Part shown: positions 3,623 to 53,150 of the stretch, piece by piece
Layout of the letters: every line of letters starts with the position of its first letter
Numbering within the stretch: position 1 is the stretch's first letter
NCBI GenBank assembly: GCA_951406725.2
Contig: OX597825.1
Location: 43,152,001-43,216,000 of the forward strand
Source: Octopus vulgaris
Lineage: Eukaryota
Length of the DNA stretch: 64,000 nt
Direction of reading: 5' to 3'
Made by a program: the position numbers and the translations under genes
The notes under the pieces: model-generated
What the model saw: the letters and a program-made list of their open reading frames with translations, nothing else
Told to the model about the DNA's origin: nothing
The model's database searches: none

Positions 3623-4160
3623 AATTGTTATATTTCGGAATGGTCATGTTGCCAGTTTAGCCAATAAAAACACACGCACTATATATTTGGTGTTATTTTG
3701 CTTCAGTGTTATTTATTTTTACATTAATCTTAATCTTATTTCGGCCAGAGTTCTTTCGTCACACTCATGTGACCGCATCAGTGGTCCTTTGTTTTCTTCT
3801 TTCTTATTTGTGTCTCTCCTTACTAACCGTCAGCCATTTTGTATTTCTATTGTATGTCTTCATTTTCGCATGCTTATATCTCTATGTGCGTTTATGTTTA
3901 TTTAGTGTGTGTATGTGGGGGGATGCCTGTAATATTTGTATCTTCTGTTTATATATGTTCATGTAATTTGTATTTTGTTTTTTGTTTTTGTTGTTTTTGT
4001 TTATTCTTATTTTGTTCATGTGTTTACATCCACTTATTATTATCATTACATATGCTTGTATGTATGTATGTATGTATGTATGTATGTATGTATGTATGTA
4101 TGTATGTATGTATAACAACAATACTAGTAATAATAATTATAAATCGAATCGAAAAAAAAA
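3620..4160 (-). mobile_element. 3' end (pLTR) fragment of a Penelope-like element between (TA)n tracts; same family as 21170-21925
   Basis: Reverse-complement similarity to 21500-21925 (e.g. ggtcatgttgccagtttagccaataaaaacacacgcactatat) and an internal hammerhead motif. Confidence 0.75.
3743..3787 (-). ncRNA. Minimal type-I hammerhead ribozyme motif with an A9->C core substitution
   Basis: Minus strand reads GGACCA CUGAUGC G GUCAC augagu GUGAC GAAA GAAC UC UGGCC. Confidence 0.7.
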
Positions 4161-4175
4161 ATATATATATATATT

Positions 4176-4451
4176 GTTGGCATCCTTTCTGTCTCGGGAG
4201 ACAATGGAGTTGCGCATAAAGTAGTCTAGTCCGGCTTTTATATTTCATGTCCTGATTTCATGTGTCGGCCTTGACACATTTCCTGTGTCCTTATAAATTT
4301 ACGAAGGGGAGACAAATACCCCCAATGGGTAAATATATAAGGACACAGGAAATGTATCAAGGCCGACAGGAAGCGTCGATGCTTCCTAGGGCTAAACAGC
4401 GGTGATGCAATTCCCTTACAGGACTGTCACGTTAGGTTGACAGTAGACAAC

Positions 4452-4452
<1 letters not shown>
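4176..4452. mobile_element. Interspersed repeat fragment with internal inverted arms (about 4264-4301 / 4329-4367), flanked by (TA)n; related to 5880-6115
   Basis: gtcggccttgacacatttcctgtgtccttata pairs with tataaggacacaggaaatgtatcaaggccgac. Confidence 0.6.
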
Positions 4453-4523
<71 letters not shown>

Positions 4524-4772
4524 GTATATATACATGTATGTATGTATGTATGTATCTATGTATGTATGTATGTATTGGTGGACAATCTTGTTGTAAACGA
4601 AGAGGACAGTACCGCAATCTCGCGTAACAATATGCAGAGACGAATTGTTTAGTGTGATCAAATATTTGTGGTGCACATTTCCTCAGTCGCTTCATCGGAT
4701 AGTCATTGCCTGGAAGGTGTACGGGATGTCACAAGTCAAGCGTCAATGCGATCACAGGAAATGAAATGAAAT

Positions 4773-5115
4773 ACAGTTCTATATTTAAGAGATGAGGAAT
4801 TATGTACATTATTTGCATTATTTACATTTGACAGATATTTGTCCTCATCTTGGCGTAGTGGTTAATGCGCGGGCTACTAACTCCAAAATTCCGAGTTCGA
4901 TTCCAGGCAGTGAACAATAATAATAATAATAATAATGATAATAATAATAAGAATAACAACAACTATAATAATAATTACACCGAAAAATACCCTAGGAAAG
5001 AGAACCCAGGTTCGAAATTTCTCCAAGACACCTGATGAAGGCTGGAGGGTGTATCAGCCGAAACGTTGTGTTAACAACAAACAAGATGAGGACAAATATC
5101 CATCAAATATAAATT
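4773..5115 (+). mobile_element. Composite SINE-like element: inverted copy of own 3' tail + tRNA-derived head + (AAT)n + hammerhead; 12-bp TSD
   Basis: TSD ATGAAATGAAAT at 4761-4772 and 5116-5127; A box TGGCGTAGTGG at 4851; B box GTTCGATTCC at about 4895; 4821-4852 is an inverted copy of 5082-5113 (29/32 identical). Confidence 0.8.
5027..5072 (+). ncRNA. Minimal type-I hammerhead ribozyme with intact core
   Basis: GACAC CUGAUGA A GGCUG gaggguguau CAGCC GAAA CG UU / GUGUU: stem I GACAC:GUGUU, stem II 5 bp, palindromic stem III AACGUU. Confidence 0.85.
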
Positions 5116-5127
5116 ATGAAATGAAAT

Positions 5128-5185
5128 GTTTTGCACAAGAACACACAGCCAGTATCTGGAATCGAGCAACATCCTAACCACTAGT
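5128..5185 (-). mobile_element. tRNA-derived SINE head fragment
   Basis: Minus strand agtggttaggatgttgctcgattccagatactggctgtgtgttcttgtgcaaaac shows A/B-box relics plus the start of a core domain. Confidence 0.5.
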
Positions 5186-5210
5186 GTACGACCTGAATAT
5201 CTATGTTTGC

Positions 5211-5253
<43 letters not shown>

Positions 5254-5879
5254 TGTGTGTGTGTGTGTGTGCAAGTGTGTGAGCGTGTGTGCATGTGTGT
5301 GTGTGTGTGTGTGTGTATTGGTGTGTGTACATGTGTATACGAGATATAGATGAATAGAATTAAAGAGGGGAAATGCACAATCTACTCCTTTTGTATTGTA
5401 ATCAATTAAAATAATCCATATATTACTTCAGGGTATGTTATTACACACACCTCTCATTTTTATGATAATGTAAAAATACAATGTCTACTTTTGTTTTTTG
5501 TTAATTTTTCGTCATTTTAGCATATAATCTCTCGACCAGAAATAGCTTCATTGTAGATCCTCTAGCTAACGAAGGCGGTATTGCACTGAACGATATTAAC
5601 CTCTGCTTATAATCACATTAGGTCACAAAGAAGGTAACACTATGTACATCGATATTTAGGCATAGCTGACTAAAAACAATTGAATGATTTAATCATCTGC
5701 ATATTTTGACCGATAGGTTTAATATAATGTTTTAGAACATCAATTAATTGTGTCTTTCGCGATTTTAGCTGTTCGTTTACCATTTTCTTAAATACTTCTT
5801 CATTTTGCAATAATAAATCTCTGAACGAGGTGTAAACAGTAACCGCTGGACAATGTAAAGTATCATAGCCATCTCAATA

Positions 5880-6115
5880 TGGCTAACCACAAAGGGTGGG
5901 TGTTACTGTAGCTTTTAGCCCCAGGAGATCATCGTCTTTAGCTGGCTTTAGGCACACTATCTGTGCCCCTATGGTATTTGCAAAGGGAGGCCATCCCTCT
6001 CTCGTAAGCCTAAGTGATACGCACGGACCGCAGTTTCGAGTTTGTTGCCTCTTGTCAACGGGCGGTAATCACCGGTTTACGATGAAAGGGAAAGCCTATT
6101 TGCAAATACTTAAGT
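5880..6115 (+). mobile_element. Interspersed repeat fragment, same family as 4176-4452 (possibly a LINE 5' region)
   Basis: Shared blocks: tttagcccc/ctagg; acac..ctgtg.cc.tat; aaggg. Confidence 0.4.
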
Positions 6116-7471
6116 ATCTTTCATTTTGGATCTCTTTTTAAGAGAGATTTGGATCTCTTTTTAAGAGGGTTCATAATACTGAGATATTCTGTTGAGGAAA
6201 GTGAATGAGGAGCAGAACCAGAAATAGACGTTGTATACATTGGTACGCATAGATAGTGCATTATTCACATATATCATTTGCTCTATGTGACAAATGTGTA
6301 TCAGTGAGTATTGCAAGATCACGTATGAAAATCCATTATGGAGGAGACAAATATCCTGCGATAATTTTTAAACCTAGGAACTCATTCTATAATTTTCACC
6401 TGCATAAATACAATGGTTGTAGACTAATGAATTTTATTTATTTGTTTGTTTATTTATTTATTTATTCATTAGAAAGTTGATCGATTCAGTTACAAATCGT
6501 GCTTCGGAGCAAATAATGTGTCTGAGAACAGTAGTAGATCATTACATTGATTCGAACAGCCATTTCACATTTTGAATAATTTCCGAGGAGACTGAAAATA
6601 ACAGGTTAAGAAAATAATATTTTGAGGATTTTAATATCAACATTCTATATTGGAATTAGGGATTGAATCGAATTACTTCAACAATGATTATCATTTTCAC
6701 AATACGTGCATAATCTGCAATAAGTTATTCGTACATATATTATTTTCCTACTTTGCGCATAGTAAACAATTAAATGGTAAGAATTGCATTTTTACTTACA
6801 AGCTTGGCTAGACGATGTAAAATTATTTAAAAATATCAATAAACATAAAATTAACTCAGCTTCATTTTCCTTTTCTTCATATCATTGATATACTTTGTTT
6901 CGCTCCCTGAGTTTGAAGGAGGTGAAATATTGGCAAACTCTTTAGTTGTAGTATTTAGTTTCATTAAGCACCAGTTAACGTCGTCTAGATATGTATCCTT
7001 GAATAACTTTTATGAATCAAAGACTCTAAAAGACTCTAAATAAATGTTCATTTGAGATGCTGACTAAAATTTGTTATCCATGAAACAAAGCGACAGTAAT
7101 TATACAAAATTGAACTCAACAAATCAATTGACAACACATCTATTATCATTTTTCGTTCCCCAACTCCCCCTACACAATTTCTTTATTCTTCACCGTCGTT
7201 GTTCGTCTACTTCTCTTCCATATACTGTTGCCATGACATTCACTATTACTATTACTAAGCATTTGTAGCTACAGCCCAAATGCTCATTTCTGTTTCTCAG
7301 GTAGATTTTCTATATCGCTTTGTAAGTATGACTTTGTTTCCCACAAGAAATTTACCTCTTTTCCTCTACCTATCACTCTCTCTTGTTTCTCTCTCTCCCT
7401 CTCCATCTCTCTCTCAAAATATATGTATTCATAGACACACATGCATACAGAGAAACATGTATGTCCATATG

Positions 7472-7504
<33 letters not shown>

Positions 7505-7810
7505 CGTGTGTGTGTGTGCGTATGTATATAATTATTTACATTTATATATCTAAACATATGCAAGCACGCTTACACCAGCGTACAAACTTGCTTCTTTCCA
7601 TGAGATTTAAGAACTATAGTTAGTTCGTGATGTTATTTTTGTAAACAAACTTTCATGTGCTTTTACTGCGATGAATTTTGTTAAGCAGCATCGATTTTTA
7701 CAATTCTGTAAATAATAATAGAAGTATTTTAAAAGCTTAAAGCTTATAAGCGATCATCGTGTAATGACTAAAGAAAATAGTCTAATAATGGGGCATATAA
7801 GCCCTCGACA

Positions 7811-7870
7811 GAAAAAAAAAGTAGGTTTTCCCGCTCGCGTGAGATTCGAACTCACATCTCGACGCTGATT
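7811..7870 (-). other. tRNA-like 3' half (T-arm plus acceptor-like strand) followed by an oligo-T tract; probably SINE-derived, not a complete tRNA
   Basis: Minus strand GTGAG-TTCGAAT-CTCAC-GCGAGCGG...TTTTTTTTT; no D-arm or 5' half is visible. Confidence 0.6.
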
Positions 7871-7871
7871 T

Positions 7872-8461
7872 ATTCTATGTACACACATTCTTGTTCTTTT
7901 ACTGCATGCCAAATATCTTTTAGTTTATGTATTTTCGGTAAGCTGTAAAAGGTGCTGGGTTTTGGCGCGAAATTGGTGATATAGTTTCTTCTGTTATCGG
8001 TGAGTTGTGGTTTGAAACCAGGTTGTTGATCTTCGTTATGATGTGGTGGTCTATATTTGAAGGTATTTCACACAAGAAAGTTGTGTCATTCAGTTGGACC
8101 TCAACCAAATCCTTATAGTGTTCTGCACCCATAATGACAATTGCACTCCTTTTATCAGCTTGTTCAATTATTACTGTTTGATCGTTTTCTATACGGTTAA
8201 GTGCAGACATTTATTGCGTCTAAGGAGAAATTTTGAAAGGATATCAATATATTGGTCAACATAGTTATTTCTTCCTTTAGGTGGGTTGAAATTTGATTTA
8301 TTCTTTACTAGGGATTCATAAATCGCATTACTTATATTAGTTAAGAAGTCTATAAGTCGTAACTTACGACAGAATATTTGGATATCCTCCTTTAGTTCTT
8401 GGTTGTTGACTGTTGATGTAGGTGTAAACTTCAGTCGTAAGTTACGATTTTCTACATCCAA
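7872..8461 (-). pseudogene. Inverted 5' segment of a Penelope-like ORF (N-terminal region up to RT motif 1)
   Basis: LKFTPT..EDIQIFCRKLRL..KSNFNPPKGRN; ALNRIENDQTVIIEQADKRSAIVIM; a frameshifted FYSLPKIHK. Confidence 0.88.
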
Positions 8462-9985
8462 AAGACTTAAAACCTATTATAGTTGATCCAGTATTCCCTA
8501 CCCACCGTCTAAACAATTTTATTGACATTGTCTTGAAACCACAAATTACCTACAAACCCATTTTCATCCAGGATGACATCGAGTTCCTGTCCCATCTTCT
8601 CAAAACAACTGAAACAAATTCATATCTACTTAGTTTTGATGTGGTAAGCCTTTACACCAATCTTCCACGTGATTCAGGAATGAAGGCGATTAAATACTAG
8701 GTAGGAAAACATAGAGAAAGGATCTCAACGGATTTACAGTGCTATTTATATTAGACAATCAGACTTATTCTGCAAAACAAGACATTCTTCTTTAATGGAA
8801 ATAATTACATCCAAATTAAAGGCACGGCGATGGAAACGCGGTTTGCTCCCGTTTACGTGAATTCTGTAATGGGATACTTAGAAGAACAACTCTACCAAGC
8901 ACTGAATTTAGAAATTATATTGAAAAGGCATGGAAGAAATACCTTTACGATTCTTTCATAATCTGAACAGAGTCTCTAAATACTCTAGAAGAGGTCAATA
9001 TCCTCCGGCATAACCTATGCCCATCTCTCCAATTTACAAAGGAGATGAATAGTACCAAATTACAAATCCTAGGTATAATGGTAATTAAAAATGACACTAC
9101 CAGATATATACTACAAACACACGGGCACACATCAATACCTGAATTTTAAGTCGTGCCATCCACCACATACAAAACGCAATATCCCATACTGCCTAACCAG
9201 AAGAATTTTTGCTGTTGTAGAAGATGCGGATATCAGGAACAAACGCCAAACAGAACTAAGAGAACTTTTGATCAAACAAAAATACCCGTCTCTACATATA
9301 GAAAATGGCATGCAGCGGGCTATAAAAATACCCATACAACAACTTAGAAAACCCAAAGAAGTGGAAAACAAGAAAAAGTCATACCCTTTATACCATTTAT
9401 AGACAACCCATGTCACTAGAATATCTTCAGCATTGCCAAAGCAAACCTACCAAGCATTGCTCAAAGTAATGAATTGAAAGATATAATCAGAGATCGAGCT
9501 ATGGTTCTTAGTAAAAAAAACACAACCTAAAAACGTGAAAAAATTATTAATAAAGGCAAAGTTTGACCTTAGCAAGAAAAGCCAACCATTCACTGTATCT
9601 AAATGCAATGATAACCGATGTGGCACATGCCAATTCATGAACACAAAAACCGGAAGTATTTTCACAAACGCAAATATGAACTATAGAAGTAGAAATTTAA
9701 TTTACAGCATCAAATACCAGAATTGTGAAGAACTATATGTGGGTCAGACTTGTAATGCACGGGTCAGACTTGTAATGTACAATCAGAACATTCACGTGTG
9801 CACCGACAGCAAATTAGCGACCCAGATGTCCACCAGATACATCTGAGTGACCGTCTAACAACATGAGGCCGGAAAATATTTATATTTCCATTCTACAAAC
9901 TACACATTCCGAGTGAAATTGAGAGAAAAATCAGAGAAAAGAACTTTATCAATAAATTTCAACCGAAACTAAATAAACAATACTA
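8462..9985 (+). pseudogene. Penelope-like RT plus GIY-YIG endonuclease, disrupted
   Basis: KPII..P..PTHRL; SFDVVSLYTNLP; QIKGTAMETRFAP; DIYYKHTGTHQYLNFKSCHPPHTKRNIPY; CNDNRCGTC; NLIYSIKYQNCEELYVGQT. Confidence 0.93.
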
Positions 9986-10436: not shown

Positions 10437-10481
10437 TGATCCTGAAGATTGCATAATTTAATGCATGAAAGTACTAGTTCA
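10437..10481 (+). ncRNA. Minimal type-I hammerhead ribozyme in the 3' pLTR of the PLE
   Basis: UGAUC CUGAAGA U UGCAU aauuua AUGCA U GAAA GUAC UA / GUUCA; palindromic stem III AGUACU. Confidence 0.78.
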
Positions 10482-16356: not shown

Positions 16357-17330
16357 TTATGAAATTCCAACACTAGTCCTGCTGATCATCCAAATTGCAC
16401 GTACCACATACAGTTTGTCACATTGCTTGCGGCATTGACTTCTATTACTGCAGTGTAAGTGAACATTGCATTTCAAGGTTTTGGAACTCTTAAATTTTGC
16501 CCTCAGCAAGGCTCCGCAGCGCAGCGGAGGTCGACGCGGACTATCTCCGCGCACTCTGCCTTATCATAGTTGTCAGAGACCCCTTGGGTGCAGTGGTCAC
16601 CGAGAACGTGGTTGTTATCCCGCCGCCAACCCGCAAGCTTCCAGTCGGCGGCGGATACGATATCGACCAGGAGCACGGGGTGCTGCCGTCAGCAGACGCG
16701 AGGGCGGGAGCAGGAGACACAAGCACGTCCACGCGGACGAGGATGAGCATGGGCACACGGGCACCATCACGAGCCGAGCACGAGAACTGCCACCTTCATT
16801 GTCGCCTCCTCCGTAGGCCGCCGGACGACTGCGGCTAAGCTTCGATAAAGTGCCGATCGTGGCGGAGAACAACGGCGACGGGGACGAGCAGGGTGAAGAC
16901 GGGGAGAAAAGAAATGAAGGTGCACTCCCCGTCGTCGAGAATGTGACAAGCAGCAATCTAAACACCAGCACGATCACTGCCATGACAGCGACGAATGGAC
17001 ACGGAAACTTGCTCCGTCACAAGCACGACGCCCGGCACAAAGCGTGTAAACACGCGGACGCGTACACGTCCGGACGCGCACACATCCGGACGCGCATGCT
17101 AACGGCTGTGAGTCTTCGATACGCAACAATGCTTTGCTTGTTTGCTTGCTTGCTTACATACATCTGTATGTCCGAGTTACTCCCACCGTTTACACGTATC
17201 TCGTTCCACTCGTTCGTTCTACCGTCGAGACAAATCAATTGACGCACACACATTCAAGCTCGAAACTGCATCTAGGTACATAGGCCAACAGATGCCATCT
17301 CTTCGGCTGCGCATGACACCTGCTGTAAAG
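16357..17330 (-). promoter_or_regulatory. CpG-rich unique island; candidate promoter plus non-coding first exon transcribed leftwards
   Basis: Abrupt GC/CpG enrichment with no TE similarity; minus-strand donor TAA|GTAAGC at 16356; all three frames have stops within about 35 nt of the donor; E-boxes CAGATG/CACCTG near 17290-17320. Confidence 0.5.
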
Positions 17331-19805: not shown

Positions 19806-20811
19806 AGTAGAAATATGTTACAAAAAGAAAATATAAAATACACGTGGAAATGTAAGGTTAAACTATGAAAAATCAACGAAAATGCACATTGTAAATAAAA
19901 AAAGGCTTTTTATGACAGGTAACGACAAATATATTAATACCTATTAGCCGGTGTTTTCAAAACGATGAATAGCATTGCGGAAACCATGGTACGCTCTGTT
20001 TCCTGACTTTATAATCATCTCATAATAATGACTTTTATGACTTTTATTACTACCTCAGTCAATCTAAATGTATATATTTGTCGTTACCTGTCATTAAAAG
20101 CCTTTTTTTATTTACAATGTGCATTTTCGTTAATTTTTCATATATTACTTCTCTCTCTATATATATATTTTTTTTTTTCTCTCTATCACCCTCACCCTCA
20201 TTCCTTCTACCTAACACTCCTTTACTCTTTAAACTCTCATCTCTTTACATTCTCATATCTTTCTCTCTCTATCACCCTCACCTCCACATTCCTTCTATCA
20301 ATTTATCCTGACTGACCACTAACGAGTACACTTTCCCTCTCTTCATTTCTATATTATCTCTCTCCCCGCCTTTCTTTTTTTCTGTTTTCCTTTCTTTTTT
20401 CTTCTCTTCTTGTATTTAATGTAACATTTCAAATACATTACCAACTTTTAAGTTACTTCAAAAAAAAAAAAACCCTTGATTCAATAACACCGTTTACAAA
20501 CTCTATGCTTGGATTGGAATGACCAATTTTAAATACTATTGGAACTTACTCACAAGGTACAAGTATTTTATATGTATACCATTCTGCCTAAATAATGGAA
20601 CTGAAGATACAATATCCCTGCATATCTCACATCTATTTTCATTCCTCCACTCCACTCTCTATTTCATATCTTATCTAGAATAACTATTGCTTAAACATTT
20701 TCTCACACCGTCTCAGATGATGGGATATATAAAATATCCCGGAAACAGCTGTAAGACCTTCTATTTATAAATGTTCTGAAATCTTTATACCCTTGGATTT
20801 TTATCGCATTC

Positions 20812-20868: not shown

Positions 20869-20973
20869 GATAAAGGGTAAAATTAATTAATTAATTAATT
20901 AATAATTAATAATTATATCAAGTAGTTCGGCATGTTAAAACAACCATTAACAGTTAACTTAAACAATTCTTTC

Positions 20974-21127
20974 TAATTATGAGTATAATTATTAGGGTTC
21001 AGCAAAAAATTTGCTTCAACACATACCTAAATTTAGAAATAGCAGCCAAAACTAGCTATTTCTAAATTTAGGTATGTGTTGAAGCAAATATTTTGCTGAA
21101 CCCTAATTATAATTATACTCATAATTA
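20974..21127. repeat. Near-perfect long inverted repeat (arms about 70 bp, 11-nt loop) between (TA)n tracts
   Basis: taattatgagtataattattagggttcagc...ttagaaatagc / gctatttctaa...gctgaaccctaattataattatactcataatta. Confidence 0.93.
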
Positions 21128-21169
21128 TAAAAATTATATATATATATATATACGTTTATATATTCGTTT

Positions 21170-21925
21170 TGTAAGATTCTTGATGCAAATCAGTAAATGA
21201 GCATTGGAGGGAACTTAAGGAAGAAAAAGCTCATCGGTTCTGTACCAGCAAGCCGAGCAGGATCATGGGGGCTCACTCAACAGCATAGAAGTTAAAATAT
21301 TGTCCACACATAGAACAGACGCAATGCTTAGACAAATTACGGAAGATACACACAAAATGGAAAGTAAACTTAGCCTGGATAGAAAACTAGAATGGAACAC
21401 TTGCACACACATCCACTACACCATAACCCATGACAGAATAAGATCCCCATAAATTGATAATAATAGGAATATAATACAATGCACAGATAAATAAATGGAA
21501 TTAAATAACTATATACATTAAAAAAATTAAAAAATTGAATACAAAAAATAGAAAGAAAGATAAAGTAAGTAGATGTAAACAAATGAATAAAAATAAATTA
21601 AACGAACGCGTATAAAGAGGGTATACTGATAATGCAGGCACATAACCTCCCCCCCCACACACACACACACTTATTAAACATAGACATGCACAGGGATATA
21701 CGCATACAATAGGAATGCAAAATGGCAGATCATTAGTAAGGAGAGACACACAAAAAGAAAGAAGAAAGCAAATGACCACTGATGAGGTCACTGAATTGTG
21801 ACGAAAAACTCTGGCCGAAATACAATTAATATAAAATAAAGCTGAAGCAAGTGAACACTAAACATATAGTACATGTGTTTTTATTGGCTAAACTAGCAAC
21901 ATGACCGTCCCCAAATACAACAATA
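21170..21925 (+). mobile_element. 5'-truncated PLE: GIY-YIG C-terminus plus 3' UTR/pLTR
   Basis: VNEHWRELKEE..SSVLYQQAEQDHGGSLNSIEVKILSTHRTDAMLRQITE, homologous to the endonuclease tail at 52075-52280. Confidence 0.8.
21774..21816 (+). ncRNA. Minimal type-I hammerhead ribozyme motif
   Basis: GACCA CUGAUGA G GUCAC ugaauu GUGAC GAAA AAC UC / UGGCC; stem II identical to the 3743 copy with a different loop. Confidence 0.75.
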
Positions 21926-21944: not shown

Positions 21945-22550
21945 CATAGGGGAATTCCAATGGGTGGCAATTGTAGCTCCCTATTGGCGGACCTTTATCT
22001 TTCTTCATGCGAGTTCCTTTTTCTTAAAGACTTATGTACTAGGAAAAAGATATGTTTGCTTAAACAACTTGATGGATGCTGCAGATACATACACGATATA
22101 TTTATACCTAATTATGGTTTCTTTGAATTTTTATTCAGAAAAATATACCCCGGTGAGCCACCAGAAATGGTAATAATATTAAAAATTTTAATTATTTAGA
22201 TGCCAATTGAGTAATTAAGGATAACAATGTAATATGTACTAATAATTAAAATAAAACAGAAAATTTTGATTTCCAGTTGGCTTCAATGCCATGGTTCAGT
22301 AGTAAAATTCCTTCTTTTATTGGTTATGGTCTTTTTGCAGGGCAAATCGTTAGATATATCACTATTATTAATAATGCTGGTAAATTTTTGGAAAGAATAA
22401 GCTAAGACATTTAGTAAAACAAGGTTATAAACTTGATAAATTGTTTAAAGCTTTTAATCGCTGCTTAGGTGCGTAACTTAAAATTTTAAATAAATATGGG
22501 GTAATATCTAGTCTTTAGCTTAGCAAATATTCGTAAGGATTTGAAGGTTT
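21945..22550 (+). pseudogene. PLE reverse-transcriptase fragment, very decayed; AT-rich tail to about 23490
   Basis: GIPMGGNCSSLLADLYLSSCEF...CRYIHDIF (compare GxPMG and RYIDD). Confidence 0.75.
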
Positions 22551-24527: not shown

Positions 24528-24563
<36 letters not shown>

Positions 24564-24584
24564 ACATACACAAATATATACACA

Positions 24585-24746
24585 TAGCCGCAGGAGTAGT
24601 TGAGTGGTATGACGTTTGCTTCCCAACCTCATGATTCTGTATTCAGCCCCACTGCATAGCGCTTTAGGCAAGTGTCTTGTACTATAACACATGCCGGTCC
24701 AAAGCCAAGTAATTAAGAGTAGTAGACACAATCTGAAAACCTTCAG

Positions 24747-24748
<2 letters not shown>
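24585..24748 (+). mobile_element. Degenerate tRNA-derived SINE 5' part
   Basis: gcaggagtagttgagtggtatgacgtttgcttcccaacc...ggcaagtgtctt. Confidence 0.75.
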
Positions 24749-24778
<30 letters not shown>

Positions 24779-25154
24779 CAGAGAGACAGAGAGACAGACA
24801 GAGACAGACAGAGACAGACAGACAGACAGGCAGACAGACAGACAGATAGACAGGCAGTGAGAGACAGAGTGTTTAAAGTATGATCAACCAAAAGAACACT
24901 GAATCCAGTTAGTGATGAATATAATTTAATATATACAATTTACAAAAGAGCAACTAAAAGTTTCATGATATACGTTACAATAACTAGGCAGATTTATGTA
25001 ACATTCTCTGTATCTCCAAACAATCTTTTACTTCATATTGTTTCAAAATCTTATACACTCAAAATAATGATTATACTTCACCGAACTACGTTTCCTTTGG
25101 CCATTTCCCCATATTTATGTATTTATCGATCTGTTTAGTTACTTACATACCGAA

Positions 25155-25205
<51 letters not shown>

Positions 25206-34400: not shown

Positions 34401-36774
34401 CACTATTGTCTGAAATATCGAACAGACATTTAATGTTTCCTTACATCAACTACGCGATGCAACTATGATCTAGGAGATATGTTTCTTTTTCGGTTTATGT
34501 ACCACTTAGTTATTTGGTACACAGATTAAGACATCTACATTAACCTATTACTACCATTTCGGATTATACTGAATTCGCTATTATGATTTTCATTTCTTGG
34601 TCGCGCTGTTTTGTAATTTTCGCTATTGTAGACATTGTACCTCTCGTTTATATTTATTCTGTTCTTAGTCCATCATTACAGTAATACGTTTGTACAATTA
34701 AACGTTTTGAGTTTAGTATTGATATTCTTTTGATGATAGTATTCATTTTTATTATTTGATTAGTTTATTAGTGAGTGGCAGAGAACTTTAGCGATATTTA
34801 GTAGTCTTCCTTACGAAATTGTGTAATGTAGCTCACACCAATAAATATGTTTAACCTTATTTCTAAAAGCTTAAATAACTTAGTTTAATTCTGGTAAATA
34901 TTTTCAAGTTGAAATCAGTTGATACATCTATTGATATGTTTCTAAATTTGCTTAGGTAATCGTTATCCTAGAAATAACATTGCTAATGTCTTAATGTTAT
35001 CTACTTTCTAAGACTTTATCAAATTCTAAGACTTTATCAAAGAAAAAATAGCAATATGTCATTATAAACATCTTATACGCTAATGGAAAATACATAAAGC
35101 GATGGATTTTCAGAGGAAAGTCAAGTTATTGTATTCGTAAATTCTTTCAAAAGCGTCTGAAAATGAAACTAAATCTAAATAATTTTAATTGAAAGAAATT
35201 TCCATTTTAATGTTACAGTTTCTGAAATACTCTCAATTACGTTTTAACTAATAATAAATAACAGAATGTAAACATTTCCAGAAATCAATGACAAGCAAGT
35301 AGAGCTCTTTTGAACAACTAAACATGTATTGTTAACAGGAATCTTAGCAATTGTGGTAAATAAGATATATCATTTGCAGGACGAAATATACAACATTCTT
35401 TAGACACCACACAATGAAACAGTATGGACTATACAGAAATGAAAATATTATTGAAGTTTCACTTCTCTGCTACAAACCCGCTGCACCATATACCCAAACG
35501 TCATGGAATGTAATAATTGAAAATCCTAGAAATTACAGTCACTTTGACAGTCTTTTGTTCTTGGTTTTATTATTAAATTGGATGAAGAAAACATAAATAA
35601 TTTCATTTTTGCAAGTCTAGAAACCAATTGAGCCTACCGTTACCTATTATTAAACACACGATTTGACGATAATAGATTCGAAAACGTGTCACTATCTTGG
35701 TTTAACCAGCACTGGGCCGCTTCAGTGTGCAATTTTGGGAATATTTATTAAAGCTATCTTCCTTTGTGTGTGTGAATCATGCATCACCAAGAAAATAATG
35801 AAGGTTACGTCCCTTAATTCTATATAGCAACTTTTCTGGCGCTATTTGGACTTCAGTTTCTAATAAGGTTCAAGATACATGTATGGAACCTTTTACGCTG
35901 CAATAATATACATATACTGTTGCAGAACGATAACATTATACAATGGAGACTTTATGTGAATTTATGTTAGATACCAATTTTGATTTCATTTCAAAGCGAA
36001 TTTGAGACAAACTGTCACTAAAAGTTATTAAATGAAGATATCATACAAACACAATTTTAGAGGAATATGCATGCAAGGAATGAACATTTAACAAATCAAA
36101 TATGAAATATGGATTTAGGTGTTTACATATCTTATCTGAATTTTCCACGGCCTTTAACAAATTATGCTATTATTTTGTTTTCATTTAAATTAAAATAATT
36201 GCGCCCAGTAATAAGACGTGTGAATATAAGCGGTTGTTCTGAATCATTGACGACAGTTGGCAATATATTAAAGGCTTTATTTATTTATTGGTTTATTCAC
36301 TTTTTGAAATACTGATGTAAATATTTATGTTAACGAAGTATCTATATGAATGGCCGTAATAATATTTATGTTCATGTTTAAGATCGTAAAGATGTAAAAG
36401 GATAATAAGATGCATTATAGAAAAGAAACCTTGTAGCGAAGTAAAATTATGAAAATATAAAGAAATCAGTAAAAAAAAGTCTGAAAATAGCAGCAGTAAG
36501 AAAAGTTACATCAAAATATCGATTTATCAATCCATATACATACATATATACATACATACCCGTTTATACATTCTAATTTGTTCAAACTTTACTGTGTAGA
36601 CGCAGCCCTTCGCCGGCAATAAAAAAATGCCAACTTTTAAAACCGAAAATTATCCAAAGGCTTATAATACTTAAACATATCAAGGGGAAATGGAAAATGA
36701 ATTAAAATTTTCACTTCCAGTGGTCTAACGTGTAAAAATTTAGTCTAAAAACACTATGTATTAATCATAAATTT

Positions 36775-37351
36775 AATCCAAACATGAAACCACCAAGAGA
36801 AAACACAACAACGCGAGGACGTGGAACAAGTATAGTGTTATTGGATGCTCAGAAAAGGAAGGAAAGAAGGAGGATTTAACGTTTCGAGCAGATCTCTTCG
36901 TCAGAAACATAGGAAAAGGAAAGCTCCAATGAAGAGAAGACGGAGGGAAAAAATCGCCAACGGTACACACGCGGTCAATTAAACACATAAGGAATCCACT
37001 CGTGGGGGTCAACACGCTAGAAAGAACAGCTAGATTCTATAACCACAAAAATTAGGGATACAATTCGACAGGAACGAAAGGAAAAATAGAAATATTTTAC
37101 CACTAAGTTTCCTGGACCAATTGGTTTCCGATTTTAGTTTAGCAAGCAAATAACATTTACTCAGGAGGTAAAATCGTCATCAACAGGTACACCTTGGGGT
37201 AAATATATAAACACGAGGTGATCAAACTATATGCCGCCCGTTTATACATTCTAACTTTTTTCAAAATCTACTGCACAGACGTAACCCTTCGGTTATAGAA
37301 TCTAGCTTTTCTTTCTAGCATGTTGAAACCAACGAGTGGATTCCTTATGTG
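36775..37351. mobile_element. Composite PLE-type remnant: hammerhead-bearing fragment plus inverted arms (about 36983-37043 / 37291-37351)
   Basis: cacataaggaatccactcgt..ctagattctataacc mirrored by ggttatagaatctag..acgagtggattccttatgtg; direct repeat 36558-36612 / 37237-37291. Confidence 0.6.
36874..36908 (-). ncRNA. Minimal type-I hammerhead ribozyme motif
   Basis: Minus strand GUUU CUGACGA A GAG aucug CUC GAAA CG UU / AAAU. Confidence 0.75.
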
Positions 37352-37377
37352 CTTAAATGTACACTATATCGTATGAC

Positions 37378-41930: not shown

Positions 41931-42939
41931 ACTAGTTCGACGTTGTTATCAGGCAGAAACCTGAAAATCTATTTCATTTAACAACTTCGAAAGAAAAACT
42001 AAAAAAAAACAGCATGATATACATTTGCATATTTTTGATATGAATTAAACGAATGGCGTACAGTATGTTTAATAATTTGGAAAATAGTTTATATATTTAA
42101 AATGCTTAATTTCGGAAATATATCAAGCGAAGTAAACATAAGCAGTAGAAATACAAATTACATGTATTTCAAAATGTGGGACACTACATGACAGAAACTA
42201 ACAATAAAGAAAGAAAATAGTGGTGATTGGTTTCCAGAGGTACGATGAGAAGTTTCAGGTGAAGGATAGAAAGATGACATTGAAAGAAAGAACGATAGAA
42301 CGAAAGAAAAGAATGAAACACAAACTGGTAGTCTGAAATGAATGTTAGGCAGAAAATGAAAAATAAAATATGTCTTACCTAGGCACTGAAAAAGGATGGG
42401 TGATAAAAAGTTGGAAAGTCTTTTGGTACCAAAAAGTGAAGAATGAGAGACGGAGTGGAGTAAAAAAGGCTGAGGAGTAGCAGGTAGGAAGAAAGAGGAC
42501 TTGCGAAGAAAGAGGGGAATAATGATAGATATTAGATAGCGTCGGAGTTAGACGAACGCCGACAGCTAGCGACGGTGGAACGCTGATGGTACAGCCGCGG
42601 ATTCCATGTTCAGTATTTTGTTGATAAACTAGCGTACGACTAGGAGGACAGGACCATGAATTCCCCCCCGGGGGAAAATAACCCTTCGTCCTGGCATGAC
42701 TGAAAAGCATGCCATGGCTGACCATCAAGACACTTCCGCATCTTCCTGGCCAAGGGTTTTACGGTGCCCGGCTAACTTATGGCACTGTCGATTGATGTAA
42801 TAATCATTATGTGTATTCACAGTGTTTCTTTGTGGAACAGAGTAAACCGACCAAGTTTGTACCTGTCAAGAAATCCTAGGAGCACTCAGGCCACAATCCG
42901 CAAGCGCAGCCACCCATGGAAGAGTAGACCACAGTTCTA

Positions 42940-43690
42940 AGCCAGTCTGGATTGATCTGACCTGGTTTGGACGGGTCTGATCCAGTTTTGACCGGTCTGA
43001 ACCGGTTTCGACTGGTCTGCACCAATCTGATCCAGTTTCGACCGGTTTGATTCAGTTTGGACCGGTTTGATACGGTTTGGACCAGTTTGATACGGTTTGC
43101 AGCAGTCTGAACTGCTATGGACCAGTTTGAACTGGATTAGAACGGTTTGGAATGGTTTCATAAGATTTTAACTGGTTAGAAACGGTCTCATCCGGTCTGC
43201 ACTGGTCTGCACCGGTTTGGTGTTTGATGAAGATGTTTGATGAAAATATTCGATGAATGTTTGATGAAAATATTTGTTGTTTAATGGAAATATTTGACGA
43301 TGAAATTTTTATGAAGATATTTGTGGGCTGGTCTGTGGGCCCGTTTGAAGTGGTTTGGACTAGCTTGAACCGGTTTGGACCAGTCTGATCTAGTTTTGAC
43401 TAGTTTGAATTCGTTTGGATCAGTCTTATCCGGGTTGGACGGGTTTGAGTTAGAGTTTGATGTTCGATGAGATGTTTGATGGAAATGCTTGAAGATGATG
43501 TTTGGTGGAAATGTTTCATGAACATGTTTGATGATAATATTTAATGAAATGTGTGACGAAAATGTTTGATGATGCTTGATGAAAATGTTTTATGAAGATA
43601 TTTTGAGGAATATGTTTCATGAAATGTTTGGACCGGTTTGAACCAGTTTTTGATGAACTTGTTTGATGTTTGATGAAACTGTTTGAAGGT
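42940..43690. repeat. Composite minisatellite: blocks of a 10-bp unit (ACCGGTTTGR) alternating with 11-13-bp units (ATGTTTGATGAAA)
   Basis: About 28 in-phase 10-mers at 42940-43220, then alternating blocks to 43690. Confidence 0.9.
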
Positions 43691-43699
43691 TACTTCACT

Positions 43700-45300
43700 A
43701 GGTAAATAAAGTAAACATACAATTTATTAAAATATAGATATAATTCAGAAATGGAAAACAAAACAATAAACTGAACAATAATAAATTCAATTCAATTTAA
43801 ATATTTTATACAAACAAATGATTTGGTCTATCTATGACTACAGAGAAAGAATATAATTCAATTACTTACTTAGATGTGAACTGTAATTTATTATCTGGAA
43901 TATATGAACCGTATATGAAACCAAATTATAAATCAAAATATATAAATTATCAAAGTAATCACCCACCTTTTTATGAAAAAAGGTTTAGTATATAATATTA
44001 GTAACAGAATTTCATATTTATGTTATAATGAAGATATATTTTATAGACATAAAGACCAATATGATTTGGCCTTAAGCAAAGCAAGATATAAGAATAAATT
44101 AAAGTATATTAAAGATAATAATATTACAAATTAAATCAGTAAATTTGATAATAGGAATAATAATATAAAAACTAATGATAATAATAAAAACCATAGATAT
44201 ATAAAGAAACCGAATAAAATTTAAAATTATATCTACTTAATGAATAAAAATAATTTTAATAGCTTCAACAGTAATAAGGTAGATACTAATATAATCCCAT
44301 ATGCTATACGAATAAAAACTAATTTGGTGAAATAGGCTAATTAATAAGCATTTCAATATATATAATAAATATTATGAAATTATTAACAATAACAAAACAA
44401 AGGTACTTAGCTACTATAATGGCTTCTATAAATAATAAAAAATTAGGTTTATTTTATTCAAATAGAGAATGTGTTAAGAATAACTCCTCTAATGCCAGGG
44501 CCAATGTACAAAATGTTAGTAGTAATACTACTAGGTATTTCATTAATAAACATAATATTATTAAGAACGGTCAGAAACCAGTTACATCTAAAGATTCTTA
44601 AAACATGTGATTGTAAAAATATAGATGTCCGTATGGTTAAAAATTTATGTAAATTAAAACATGTAGTATATCAATGTAAAGTTACCCCAGAAATCAATAA
44701 TATGTTTATATTGGATCAACTGAAAAAACCCACCTCAGCTACCATTCTGTAACTGAACGTCGATATGTTCGCGTCTTTTTTCTTGGGATGTCTACTATAT
44801 CAGAATTTTAACCTACATTGATATACGCATCATTGCACCTAAGGACTTACGCTCATGGATCTACGCAGGATTGCACCTAAGCACTTATGCTCTGGATTCT
44901 ATAACTTCGGAAAGTGGAACTATGAACTATTATAATTCTATTTTCTTCTCTATTTCCATCTACTTATTCTTTTATTCCATTCCTTTATGTCGTCATCTTA
45001 TTAATATATACCATTATAATTTTCCCTATTTTTCCATATTTGTCTCTGATGACAGTATATCCCATACTCGAGGATACCCCCAAAACAGCTGTAAGATTTC
45101 TGAATTTCTTCCTATAATAGTATTGTATACAACTTGAGATGTTTCCCTAGCCTTAAAGTTTGGTGTTTTGTTTAGCAATGGTTCTATAACTGCAATGGTT
45201 CCATAACTACTCTCGGTTATAAACTTAGAGCCCCAGTAATCCGTTACAGCACTTACCTGGCGTACCTAATCGTTTACATCAACTGTGAACTAAACCCCCA
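43700..45300 (+). mobile_element. Very AT-rich decayed PLE (RT thumb to GIY-YIG, then 3' pLTR)
   Basis: KTCDCK...LCKLKHVVYQCKVT followed by YIGST (frameshifted); hammerhead relic at 45042. Confidence 0.7.
45042..45097 (+). ncRNA. Degenerate hammerhead motif (G12->A), same type as 20710
   Basis: GUCU CUGAUGA ..UAUCC..GGAUA.. AAAA CAGCUG UA / AGAU. Confidence 0.55.
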
Positions 45301-46177: not shown

Positions 46178-46734
46178 GTATGTATGTATGTAGTCTTCCA
46201 TATATTTGACGTGAATGAGGCAGACAGTTTTTAATTAAGATACGAAAAAAGAAAATTTAGCGTACTTAACTAAAAGAGCACTTAAGTAATACCCAGTGGT
46301 ATTAACTGAAGAAATAATAGCAATAATAAAGAAATAAAATATTATATATGTGTAAGCATATGTAATGGTGTGCGTGTGTATAAAATATATGTGCGTATAT
46401 ATGTACGAGTGAGCTTGAATACATGGATGCAAATTCTGTAATTTATAAGTATTTATAAGTAAATATATTAGGCAATAACTATAGTATGGCTAAAGATTTC
46501 ATTCATAAGTAGTGATGCGGCCAATTCACGTATTTGTATAACAAATATATAATGCTGGCATTTAAGTTGTTTCTAAGATTATATCATCCAGCACATTGAA
46601 TGAACGTAAGTAATACTAAGCAAACATGAGTTCATGTAATTTTTAAAAGCAGTTAGAACACTTATCATTACTTACGTTTTATGCAATTTCTATGTGTTTG
46701 TGCACGCGCGCTCATTTAGATGTGGTCTAATCGT

Positions 46735-48619: not shown

Positions 48620-49370
48620 GTGCGAATTACCTACAAAACCCGATATATATATATATATCCATACCTTAAGGTAAATTAAATTAAGTTAGCGATTACTCAA
48701 AATTCATTCTCAGTGCATTGTGCAAAAGTACATTTATATGCGTCTAGTTATTCAGAAATTCAGTTATCTTCTTGTTAGTCCACAGAATAGACAGGGGTTA
48801 ATTGGAGCAGAGATGGTATATCCTGGAAATTGTATTGCATGGTTTCGCATACCTTACTATTGACCAATTAATGATGTACCTGATTTTATCCTCCTTCAGT
48901 CACCATGCAAGATCTCCCAGAGATGTTGAATGTCTCCTCTTGATTGTCTTAAACCTGGCAACAAGATTGCGATAACGGTTCTTAAATGAATCAGCCGTCT
49001 GCCCAGCGTAAACATTCCCCTTGTGTGCACGGTACATTTATATTCAAAATTTGTACTTATACAAAGATTCATCAAAGGACATTTTGAATTCTCTCTGCAT
49101 TAGAATTTATCGTATTTATTTGTATATAAGGCAGTCCAGACTCCATCTACCGGCGTTGTTACCGTGCTCGCTGTATCATAAGTATTTCTACTTGTACAAA
49201 TTGGTCGTAGTTGGTATTTATTAATGCGGTTTACATCTCCTTCGTTGGTATTTAAATGCAAACGTTCTCTAGATCCAGTAGGTGGGTTATCGAAACTTTG
49301 CCGCATTTTGCTATTGTTTATGCGATGCATAAGCAACTCTAAATTAGCAATGTTCACGTAGAATACGTAC
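48620..49370 (-). pseudogene. PLE GIY-YIG endonuclease fragment
   Basis: GNVYAGQTADSFKNRYRN...HSTSLGDLAW.LKE...INWSIV..AKP....HLC. Confidence 0.75.
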
Positions 49371-49372
49371 AT

Positions 49373-49419
<47 letters not shown>

Positions 49420-49426
<7 letters not shown>

Positions 49427-52400
49427 GTATATGTATGCACCTCTGTCTCCTTGTATGTGCATGTGTGTGTGTGTGTGTTATGTAACAATGTACCATGTTT
49501 GTATGTATGGATGTGTATCTTTATATGTGTGGATCCGTGTCTCCATATGTGTCTGTTCATATAGTATATATACCTAGAGTTACCCCAAAATTCGCCACAC
49601 ATAAAAAGATCAAAAAAATTGATTGTCTGTCTGAAATTGATAAAAACGTTCTTAAAGTTAAGATGGAGGTTAGGACAATACAACAACATCCCACACACAG
49701 ATAACGACAACAACCACATCATTCACACCACTACCAACAACGTCACCCATAAAAATAACAATAGAAACTACACAAGCACTACCACCACCACTATCGCCGC
49801 CGCCACCAACAACAACAATACCGGCAACTATAACAACAACCACAACGATAATAACACTCTACACTCTGTCTTCTATAACCCTAACAACAAATCTTATGAC
49901 ATGACGAGGATCTATCCCACAGACTTACCCTTTAACAAAAGACTATGTATCCCACCCCAAATTGACAGTGAAGCAGAAGCAAAGATCTCCTTAGCTAGAA
50001 ATAAACTCCGACACATCTTAGATCAATACAACAAATCCACTAAAGGCCTACAAAAACTAAAACAGCGAATTGGGAACAAAGAATTAGTGTGCCTCCCTAC
50101 TGACAAGTCTGGCAGACTATCAGTCGATAGCCCACAGAACTATGTCCTGACCATGCAACAAAATATCAGTAGCATGAGAGAAGTTGCACCACAAGAACAT
50201 GAAAGAGTAGAAAAATTCCTCAATGCAAACATGGGAATGTGGTGCAACATACACCAAGGACGGCACACAATTTCCAGGCATCCACCAATGATGTTCCTAC
50301 ACAAACCCTACATAAACCCTGTCGCAAGGCCCCCAACCAGACCAGTTTGCGGAGCGAACATCTCCTGCAACTATAGACTGTCCTACTTCCTCTCACAAGT
50401 ATTGCAACCTCTCATAGAGATGTCTCCTGATGTCTGTATGAGTACGGAAGATCTCCTCAGTAAAATCAGTACTTGCAACCACACCAACGACCTCACAGGT
50501 TGTATAGTGGGTAGTATGGATGTAATTTCATTGTACCTATCTATAGACATAGATTTTCCTGTGGAGAAATGCATTCAAGCAATCTGTGAAAGTGAAGTGG
50601 AATTCCGTAAGGTCAACACCAGGGAACTGGGCCTCCTCCTCAGACTATGCGATGACAATAACTATTTAGATGACCATGACCTTAGTAAATTCTGCCCCAC
50701 TAGGTCACAGAGAGATAGACCACCCAGCGGTGAAGAAAAGCACCACAGAGCGCTGGAGTGGCTGGACCGCACCCACGCAAAACCCTGCGAACAATAATCA
50801 GGTGAGGGAAATGATGGCATATGCAATAGGGACCAGCGGAAAAACCACCTTGAAAAACCACATAGTAAAGTTTAATAAAAAACTATACATGCAGGTTCAA
50901 GGTGCAGCCATTAGTGTAGGAATAGCTGGAGATGTGGCTGGCCTCTTCATGACCTGGTGGGGCAGAAAATTTAAACAAATGTTAGCAGAACAGTCCATCA
51001 CCCTTCTACTCTACAGTAGATATGTAGATGACATAAACATAATAGTTAGAACCAACTCTAGTGACGATAATGTAGAGACTGAGAAGAACGTAATGGAGAG
51101 TATCCAGCAAATAGCTAACTCCATTCACCAAAGTATCAAGGTAACTATAGATTACCCCACTAAGAAACCTAACAATGGACTCCCTGTACTTGATACTGAA
51201 CTTTGGTTAGAGACTGTGAACAATAGAGTGCAGCTCCTCCACTCTTATTACATGAAATCTGTAACTTCAAAATATGTTGTTCACAAGAACACAGCTTTGT
51301 CACACAGCATGAAAATTAACATACTAATAGCAGACCTAGTTAGAATAATGAACAATGTGTCCCCACTATGCGAACACACATAGAAATTACATAAAACGTA
51401 AGTAATGATAACTGTTCCAACTGTTTTTAAAAATTACATGAACTCATGTTTGCTTAGTATTACTTACGTTCATTCAATGTGCTGGATGATATAATCTTAA
51501 AAACAAACTTAAATGCCAGCATTATATATTTGTTATACAAATACGTGAACTTCATACACCGCATGCAGTTCTCTGGATATGATCAGAAAGATAGGGTTCG
51601 TGTATACAGGGGGGGGGGGGTGCTACAAAGAAATTAGATAACATTATACGTAACGATACCAGTGGTACCTGCCCTAGATATAGAAACAAAGAATGGAATA
51701 GAATACAAAGAACTTGTGACAAAGCAAACAGGGCGAACACGTGGTATAAAACCGACAAATATCAAGGAGTGATGTTTGTAGAGGCCACAGCCCATGGAGA
51801 ACTAGCCCGTAGATTTAGAAAAGCTTTGAAGGAGACCAAACTCAACATTAAAATTGTTGAAAAGCCAGGGAACTCCGTCAGATCACAACTATGTAGGACG
51901 TACCCGTTTAAGAATACCATATGCACCAATGATAACTGCATGGTAAGTAGAATTAGCCCTGGTATTAACTGTAGAAATCGAAATGTAGTTTACAGCATAA
52001 GATGCATAGAAGATGCTTGTAAGGACATGAACATGATGTACATAGGGGAGACGTCTAGGAGTATTGAGAACGGATAAATGAACATCTAAGACAATATGAC
52101 GACAGAAAACAGTCCTCCATACTCTGCCAACATGCCAAAGACCACCATGGAGGCAACTTGGGTCAACTTGACATTCGCATCTTATCCAAGCACCCAAAAG
52201 ACCCAACACTCAGACAAATACGGGAGTACGTCCTTATAAATGAAACCTCCCCAATATTAAATAGGAAATATACACAATAAATACTATACCTCCATACCTC
52301 CATACCCACAGTTTAGACAGGTAGAGTAGAATAGTTAGTGGACTGTCAGGTAGATAAATGTATGTATGTATGTGGGTGTGAGTGTGTATGCATGCCTTTT

Positions 52401-53150
52401 TTGTTAATATTTATTTTTTTATTTTAATATTTTTTATATTTTTTATATTTGTTTATTTTTTATTTCTGTATGTAAGCATTTAGATATGTAAATAAACAGA
52501 TCAATATACAGACGGATAAGTATATAGACTATATGAACAGACATATATGGAGACACGGATCCACACATATAAAGATACACATCCATACATACAAACATGG
52601 TACATAGTTACATAACACACACACACACACAGACATGCACATACAAGGAGACAGAGGTGCATACATATACAAACACATGCTCACTCACACATACATAGAA
52701 AATAAACAAACACGGACAGGCAAGCACATAAATATGCAGGATATGTACATACAGATGCACACACATACATACATACATATGCATACACACACAAATATAC
52801 ATACATACACATGCAAACACACACACACATACATACGTAAATGCATGCATGTCTAGGCACACACACACATACTAACCAACTGACCCACACACATGCGCAC
52901 AATCAAACAAAAGGGAACGCAGTGTAAATAACGGACAGAGTCAAAACTATTGAAAAGGTTGCAAGACGTAACGTAAATTTTAGAAAATAAAAATAAATAA
53001 GTGTAAATTTTACCGGTGAGTGTGTTAAATAATAAGGCACTAAAAGAGAATGACTCTCCCCAGACACAACAGAATATGCTTCAACACACGAACTCATATA
53101 AAGAATCTTGCAAACCAAATCCAAAAACGAAATGTATTTATATATTTCTT
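49420..53150 (+). mobile_element. Near full-length Penelope-like element (Naiad-like) with an inverted copy of its 3' UTR at the 5' side
   Basis: About 49420-49572 is the reverse complement of about 52520-52677; RT and GIY-YIG lie between. Confidence 0.88.
49619..52280 (+). pseudogene. PLE RT plus C-terminal GIY-YIG polyprotein with frameshifts and a 175-bp insertion
   Basis: PTDKSGR; RPVCGAN; GSMDVISLYLSI; QVQGAAISV; SRYVDDI; LPVLDTELW; FIHRMQFSGY; CxxxxC..NVVYSIRC..C..YIGETSRS; QHAKDHH; RQIRE. Confidence 0.93.

Follow-up and report, generated by a model that had tools for sequence, protein, structure and literature searches.

Hammerhead motifs of the window and their closest relatives

Minimal type-I hammerhead ribozymes (min-HHRs) have been described in the pseudo-long terminal repeats (pLTRs) of metazoan Penelope-like elements (PLEs) by Cervera and De la Pena 2014 (PMC4209133), whose alignment includes the molluscs Lottia and Crassostrea and whose counts per genome are about 2,000 for Schistosoma, 4,000 for the coelacanth and 9,000 for Xenopus. 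The portion of the supplementary files of that paper that was searched holds no octopus entry. A 64,000-nucleotide stretch of the Octopus vulgaris genome (contig OX597825.1 of assembly GCA_951406725.2, positions 43,152,001 to 43,216,000; hereafter the window, in which all positions are numbered from its first letter) contains ten hammerhead motifs in eight repeat families, or one motif per 6.4 kb. It is highly probable that these are real type-I hammerheads and that the eight repeat families, which are unrelated to one another, most likely represent 5'-truncated and mostly inert pLTRs of Penelope-like retrotransposons together with small non-coding elements that likely borrow enzymes.

The likeness to the published min-HHRs includes the core, the extra base after A9, the G10.1-C11.1 pair, the palindromic stem III, the short stem I (3-5 bp) and the U3-A8 variant of the core; it extends to the genomic pattern of many unrelated families per genome, mostly present as lone copies and some of them close together on opposite strands (PMC4209133). 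More specifically, the unpaired base after A9 and the G10.1-C11.1 pair are both present in the motifs at 3743, 5027, 20710, 21774, 36874 and 52947, while the pair is absent at 10437 and 45042. The base inserted after A9 is G in families A and F, which falls outside the published letter H.

Eight of the motifs had been listed in a first-pass annotation of the window, and all eight positions and strands proved correct. Family A comprises two minimal hammerheads, a type-I motif at 3743..3786 (minus strand; A9>C, predicted cut after 3748) and one at 21774..21816 (plus strand; core intact, stem III one base short). The two are paralogous over 300 nt (77%, by self-comparison), with stem II identical and the loop changed, as had been noted earlier; the motif itself is not significantly more conserved than the 60 nt of preceding sequence (38 of 44 columns alike versus 51 of 61). 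Family B is represented by an intact minimal type-I hammerhead at 5027..5072 (plus strand, predicted cut after 5067) that matches the published consensus, and family C by a minimal hammerhead with intact core at 10437..10481 (plus strand). Both copies of family D are on the plus strand, one at 20710..20757 (U4>A, palindromic stem III of 8 nt) and its damaged paralogue at 45042..45097 (G12>A, stem II broken). The minimal hammerhead of family E, at 36874..36908 (minus strand), has an intact core and a stem II of 3 bp and lies within an 800-nt unit (36560-37359) bearing direct and inverted end repeats, and that of family F, at 52947..52983 (plus strand), has a stem I of 3 bp and the core UUGAAAA with GUAA. 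Two further motifs, both on the minus strand, lie outside the earlier list and supply families G (53696) and H (6058). When nine motif regions were aligned all against all, two of the 36 pairings exceeded the shuffled maxima of 47 and 44, namely 3743/21774 with a score of 281 and 20710/45042 with 74, both paralogous; the remaining 34 did not rise above the shuffled background. The earlier estimate was of about five or more families; the eight listed motifs form six families and the ten motifs eight.

The order previously assigned to the motifs (stem I-CUGANGA-stem II-GAAA-short stem III-UH-stem I') is present in all eight that were listed, but CUGANGA and GAAA are letter-perfect in only four of them (5027, 10437, 21774 and 36874). 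Stem III, said to be palindromic in most, is a perfect palindrome in six of the eight; the exceptions are 3743 and 21774, stem III of family A being 2 bp plus a loop. It is a near-palindrome in 6058 and 53696. Across all ten motifs the core, as CUGANGA or its U3-A8 variant with GAAA, is letter-perfect in six (5027, 6058, 10437, 21774, 36874 and 53696), and the remaining four have single lesions that are missing from the paralogue or the family. Core or stem lesions are found in half of the copies (five of ten) and either differ between paralogues or are private to the copy, as is expected of neutral decay. Because the members of each paralogous pair carry different lesions, each pair had a source with an intact core.

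Chance matching in AT-rich, repeat-laden DNA might also generate such motifs, an explanation that we regard as extremely unlikely. Matches to the intact core number 4, compared with a mean of 0.05 and a maximum of 1 in 381 local dinucleotide shuffles, and matches with at most one core change number 7, compared with a mean of 1.24 and a maximum of 6. With a descriptor that admits the U3-A8 core the counts are 4 versus 0.055 (intact) and 9 versus 1.48 (relaxed), and none of 199 shuffles reaches either; both descriptors were composed after the motifs had been seen, and the excess over shuffles is somewhat flattered as a result. Motif frequency, for which comparison with shuffled sequence had been proposed beforehand, thus lies above the shuffled background. 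Conservation of the family letters, the other check proposed, points the same way where it was examined: at 5032 no core letter is changed at a frequency of at least 15%, and at 52950 the family letters give GAAA with a U3-A8 core. Chance would be favored by the 1.2-1.5 matches that loose descriptors yield per shuffled window, by a whole-window Rfam scan without a hammerhead among its 84 matches, and by single-motif folding z-scores that are weak in 8 of 9 cases, as is usual for motifs so short. Against it stand the counts given above, the restoration of broken pairs and of GAAA by the family letters, and the placement of motifs behind relics of GIY-YIG coding sequence. Chance is ruled out for the intact copies; it may still account for two marginal descriptor matches, at 45577 and 47824, which were set aside at the background rate of one per scan.

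Several further scans define the extent of the set. Local Rfam scans of 53600-53780 and 4780-5130 returned no hammerhead, and two pattern scans of metagenome contigs returned no match. A search of the window for other block orders (SGC, CSG and GCS; all orders, stems of at least 4 bp, split-core layouts not covered) matched only the ordinary type-I motif at 53696. The letters CGAAA followed directly by CUGANGA occur at 57157-57170 (plus strand) and 59015 (minus strand), where stems for a hammerhead of any block order were not found.

Penelope-like relics and the origin of the motifs

The PLE clades with a C-terminal GIY-YIG domain, Neptune, Nematis and Hydra, are described by Craig et al. 2021 (PMC8557442), and an element from Octopus bimaculoides, Hydra-1_Obim, is included in File S1 of that paper. 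The octopus relics share with these clades the order of reverse transcriptase (RT) followed by GIY-YIG, a cysteine linker, an inverted 5'-truncated copy, an optional tail and canonical hammerheads; unlike the published elements they are broken, and any clade name given to them would be one judged by eye from linker motifs. The first relic, at 7920..9980 (plus strand), encodes RT plus a GIY-YIG domain at the C terminus, with a CX4CxxC linker, its 5' part (7920-8473) being inverted so that it reads minus and then plus. It matches the protein P0030, which carries RVT_1 and GIY-YIG, with a tblastn E value of 6e-98; Pfam assigns GIY-YIG at E 0.002, below cut-off, and within it 9487-9843 has homologues by phmmer and none by word search. 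A C-terminal piece of a Penelope-like GIY-YIG domain lies at 21204..21395 (plus strand; tblastn E 2e-10). The third relic, at 49462..52631 (plus strand), lies between inverted end repeats, with RT at 49871-51380 and GIY-YIG extending to 52270, and was found by tblastn; it is the largest relic of the window, and its best protein match is an RT protein from Octopus vulgaris (60% identical, E 7e-79). The relics at 7920-9980 and at 49871-52270 each align lengthwise with proteins in which a C-terminal GIY-YIG domain comes after RVT_1. A possible fourth, frameshifted relic at 44600..44760 (plus strand) is suggested by CxC, VVY and YIG words seen by eye in a three-frame translation and would be Hydra-clade-like.

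It had been proposed that four motifs lie just downstream of a GIY-YIG relic in the same orientation. This is upheld by tblastn or profile search for 10437, 21774 and 52947, whereas the relic ahead of 45042 was seen by eye only. The same-strand motifs lie 462, 384 and 680 nt, respectively, behind the three search-confirmed relics, and the probability that ten random motifs would serve all three is about 1e-4, with a 700-nt bound that was picked after the fact. A pLTR location is accordingly probable by position for 10437, 21774 (hence 3743) and 52947, and would follow from the relic seen by eye for 45042 (hence 20710). The tie of these type-I hammerheads, in their several families, to Penelope-like elements is thus supported, as the first-pass annotation had it.

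The end structures of the repeats resemble those of Penelope-like elements as well. Inverted end copies are found at 4770-5118, 36560-37359 and 49462-52631, and alternative 3' ends lie about 47 nt apart in family B and about 56 nt apart in family F. The two 3' ends and the inverted arms match the inverted pLTR and the optional tail of the published elements (PMC8557442, PMC11167929), the octopus tails being slightly longer than the 30-40 nt published for PLEs. In the green anole element Poseidon_Ac (Frangieh et al. 2024, PMC11167929) a hammerhead likewise lies in the pLTR and there are two alternative 3' ends, the optional tail being ascribed to two starts of reverse transcription. Cutting and protein dependence of Poseidon_Ac were shown in vitro, whereas the octopus motifs are known from sequence alone. 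The anole hammerhead cut only with the protein of its element and was dispensable for in vitro insertion; among public reads there were no RNA ends produced by it (PMC11167929).

A mechanism consistent with these features, drawn from the literature, would begin with the RNA of an active element that carries the end-repeat hammerhead twice, in its tandem ends. The two palindromic stems III would pair to form a dimeric hammerhead, probably aided by the protein of the element, and the cut would trim the precursor. Reverse transcription would begin at the 3' end and usually stop early, so that lone end repeats with one hammerhead would come to vastly outnumber whole elements. Such lone repeats would then decay by neutral mutation, and a lone copy within a host transcript would seldom cut. 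The five lesioned copies of ten fit this account, as does the rarity of hammerhead-compatible folds, which in nine copies folded with 70 nt on either side account for no more than 0.03 of the ensemble (tertiary contacts ignored). The copy at 6058 differs in build, its apparently canonical hammerhead sitting on a predicted rod; it probably represents a solo retrozyme monomer.

Several observations weigh against an origin of the motifs in mostly inert Penelope-like ends. Six motifs (3743, 5027, 20710, 36874, 6058 and 53696) have no adjoining coding relic; the link to PLEs would be made by the paralogue for 3743 and by architecture for 5027, 36874 and 20710, and nothing direct makes it for 6058 and 53696. 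The relic before 45042 is unmatched in Pfam, word (44447-44749), tblastn and atlas searches. Between 52947 and the element at 49.5-52.3 kb lie 400 nt of simple repeat, and its membership in that element is a candidate one. As to inertness, cleavage by any copy is represented by predicted cut sites, and folding energies leave out tertiary contacts and proteins and so understate activity.

Other structures were seen beside these elements. The frame of the relic at 49.5-52.3 kb is interrupted at 51376-51549 by a 174-nt piece with an inverted twin 5 kb off (46525-46697, 96.5% identical), which is either a small insertion of young age or the result of local duplication. A complex minisatellite of 10-, 20- and 13-nt units occupies 42930-43690, directly upstream of the AT-rich relic whose end is formed by the 45042 motif. 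Two fold-back repeats, 25991-26315 and 20965-21135, have their hinge inside an apparent 3' half of a hammerhead: 26143-26176 has stem II, GAAA and a near-palindrome with G at position 17, and 21043-21062 is uncertain. The hairpins of the hammerhead may themselves seed fold-back priming.

High-copy families and non-autonomous elements

The motif of family F was described previously as decayed. Contigs of four sequencing runs aligned to 52890-53780 at 80% likeness mark out 52900-53133 as a repeat of very high abundance whose 3' end falls at either 53077 or 53133. In at least 97% of the depth of this family the letter at 52969 is C, which closes stem II, and that at 52974 is A, which gives GAAA; among the changes listed there is none at 52950 or 52955, and the family core is therefore UUGAAAA. 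A U3-A8 covariant of this kind is described for the Cercyon elements of Schistosoma (PMC4209133). The description as decayed thus holds for two changes private to this copy, at 52969 and 52974, but not for the odd core, which is the norm of a high-copy family.

Family B has a more elaborate end. Its core has no letter changed at a frequency of at least 15% in contigs of the four runs, and an inverted copy of its 3' end lies at 4770..4852 (minus strand), reaching about 47 nt beyond the direct arm in the manner of a Penelope-type optional tail. By self-BLAST 4806-4852 pairs with 5082-5129, and hundreds of contigs end at 4770-4774 and at 5118. Ahead of the hammerhead, at 4851..4915 (plus strand), lies a head that resembles a tRNA and contains the A and B boxes of polymerase III, followed by (AAT)n, so that the head and the (AAT)n tract stand between the inverted arm and the hammerhead within 4770-5118. 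The head is the sole match to A and B boxes in the window and is repeated in all four runs; ARAGORN does not call it a tRNA, and a search of the literature found no tRNA-headed Penelope end. It would represent either a Penelope-borne unit resembling a short interspersed nuclear element (SINE) or a pLTR that carries a promoter for polymerase III.

Family H combines an apparently canonical hammerhead with a long predicted rod (5974..6109, minus strand), headed by a type-I hammerhead with a U3-A8 core at 6020-6064 (predicted cut after 6026). The motif has a G10.1-C11.1 pair without an extra base, a GUC cut site and the letters of the canonical type-I stem I bulge and loop II. It aligns over the full length of the Rfam family Hammerhead_HH9 (RF02275) with 25.8 bits, below the gathering threshold of 52 (E 1.9e-4 on 301 nt). 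The predicted rod of about 140 nt has a fold z-score of -6.7 over 161 nt (0 of 200 shuffles) and -6.3 over 381 nt. An 11-nt near-repeat at 5799 and 6120, weak in that it is one of three such matches, would make a unit of about 320 nt (5799-6130) if it marks the target duplication, within the 170-400 nt and the high self-pairing (here from a predicted fold) that are traits of retrozymes. The apparently canonical type-I hammerhead, the self-paired unit of a few hundred bases and the existence of solo monomers recall the non-LTR (long terminal repeat) retrozymes of metazoans (Cervera and De la Pena 2020, PMC7229834; bioRxiv 10.64898/2026.07.22.740005), a likeness found in family H only. In contrast to those retrozymes and to HH9, the octopus copy has the U3-A8 core, scores below the Rfam gathering threshold and is solo, with no tandem copies in the window, and a circular RNA form is putative. 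Judged from letters and predicted fold, the locus probably represents one retrozyme monomer, solo and about 320 nt long. A perfect tandem duplication of 20 nt is present at 6125-6167, at the edge of this probable retrozyme.

The type-I hammerhead of family G, at 53644..53702 (minus strand), has an intact core, a stem I of 6 bp and a stem III that is an 11-nt palindrome or near-palindrome, with a predicted cut after 53650; the palindrome could alternatively close as a 4-bp hairpin. The only listed family variant within the motif keeps a stem II pair. The motif lies inside a repeat of about 140 nt (about 53620-53760). Immediately downstream, at 53150-53618 (minus strand), is a 5'-truncated relic resembling a long interspersed nuclear element (LINE).

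These four builds bear on whether the abundant families B, E, G and H are mostly non-autonomous elements (retrozymes, and for B a tRNA-headed SINE-like unit) copied by Penelope enzymes instead of truncated ends of coding elements. All four lack a coding relic beside them. In family B there are the polymerase III boxes, and the depth at the head (0.89 million) is near that at the start of the tail (0.92 million) in run X1; in family H there are the canonical hammerhead, the rod and the monomer-sized span; and retrozymes have themselves been argued to come from PLE ends (bioRxiv 10.64898/2026.07.22.740005). Working against this explanation, the head-to-tail join of family B is unreadable across (AAT)n in other copies, one loose end in 2 records joining the two, and tandem copies do not occur in the window. 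A predominantly non-autonomous origin is possible for these families, if on balance less probable than truncated Penelope-like ends.

The load of such copies appears to be large. Summed contig depth over the 5027 motif reaches 5.1-5.8 million in run X1, where long single contigs have a depth of about 50; the corresponding values are 1.8 million and about 11 in X2, and 6.6-7.2 million and about 55 in X5; 22,000-36,000 contigs per DNA run align there, 3,600-4,900 of them in part only. For 52947 the summed depth is 1.8 million in X1, and for 53696 it is 0.07-0.3 million. Summed depth was rejected as a true copy number, since overlapping contigs inflate it, and is read as an order of magnitude only. 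On this rough scale families B and F have on the order of 10^4-10^5 copies each. The genome of this octopus is 2-3 Gb in size. One copy each of B and F per 64 kb fits 10^4-10^5 copies in such a genome, and the window is therefore probably typical and not a cluster. The high hammerhead load proposed earlier is supported both by the ten motifs in 64 kb and by the depth of these two families. Contigs of families B, F and G also occur in run X17, which we guess to be RNA, but contigs cannot reveal expression or cuts.

Previous work on cephalopods provides context for this load. Thirty-one recently active Penelope-like families are reported in Octopus vulgaris in a paper whose main text does not contain the word ribozyme (PMC13282606), and Penelope elements are abundant in coleoids, with 235 Rfam hammerheads in the giant squid (PMC8967140, PMC6962438). 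No hammerhead census for cephalopods was found in the literature, and the supplements to PMC4209133 and to the bioRxiv paper might list cephalopod families. The published counts of about 2,000-9,000 min-HHRs per genome (PMC4209133) compare with the rough 10^4-10^5 for each of two families seen in this window, and for retrozymes the published numbers are about 5,000 (mussel) and 120,000 (axolotl; PMC7229834). If the window is typical, the genome would hold on the order of 10^5 hammerheads of many families, well above the published numbers of minimal motifs and, on a per-base reckoning, also above the retrozymes of axolotl, whose genome is far larger. The hammerhead class is already known and these motifs are new members of it; their density and genome-wide load alone stand out. 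A load of such scale would give statistical power to ask whether Penelope hammerheads cut in vivo.

Host transcripts and other elements of the window

The first-pass annotation further suggested that any host pre-mRNA crossing the region would include sites of cleavage or trans-dimerization. This suggestion is left unsupported: a host exon was not recognized, half of the copies are lesioned, the two intact copies with a common palindrome are on different strands, and the minimal motifs of the literature are idle as monomers or dependent on protein. More specifically, no host exon was recognized by Pfam among the 34 stop-to-stop frames of the window, in which short exons could be missed. Clean copies number one on the plus strand (5027) and three on the minus strand (6058, 36874 and 53696), and no two clean copies on the same strand share a palindrome.

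A stronger version of the suggestion, in which the load acts on the host through intact sense copies that cut nascent pre-mRNA or pair in trans by shared palindromes, under selection or regulation, is very unlikely. The density of ten motifs in 64 kb would be in its favor, as would a stem III at 53696 that could close as a monomer, the letters for canonical tertiary contacts at 6058, and the under-representation of Xenopus retrozymes in introns. Opposed to it, besides the unrecognized host exon and the damage to five of ten copies, is the distribution of shared palindromes: 5027 and 36874 have one in common but are on opposite strands, and the only other is common to 20710 and 45042, two damaged copies separated by 24 kb. 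A lone minimal motif showed no cleavage, and dimers little (PMC4209133); protein was necessary for the anole motif to cut, and none of the RNA reads had an end at its cut site (PMC11167929). Cutting or trans-pairing of host pre-mRNA is thus possible, without support in the window. A bolder conjecture, also improbable, is that the octopus carries the densest hammerhead load of any genome described (several hundred thousand, one per 6 kb, in many Penelope-borne families and two core versions), and that enough of these, whether of the rod-borne 6058 type, the 53696 type with its long palindrome or trans-paired family B, cut nascent host RNA for selection to strip intact sense copies from introns. 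If so, mobile ribozymes would be a genome-wide force on cephalopod transcript processing.

The window as a whole consists of AT-rich animal DNA with a wealth of microsatellites and of relics of mobile elements. Pfam searches of the 34 frames identified only relics of PIF1 helicase and a weak GIY-YIG match. Atlas look-ups of the 44.6-kb relic and of a GC-rich frame at 16.6 kb were uninformative. Helitron-type relics with pieces of PIF1 helicase lie at 790-2540 (minus strand) and 27170-30100 (plus strand), mariner-like and LINE-like pieces were noted by eye, and several short repeats resemble octopus SINEs. A GC-rich, island-like stretch at 16430-17330 contains several open frames with no family match and could be a first exon or the end of a mobile element.

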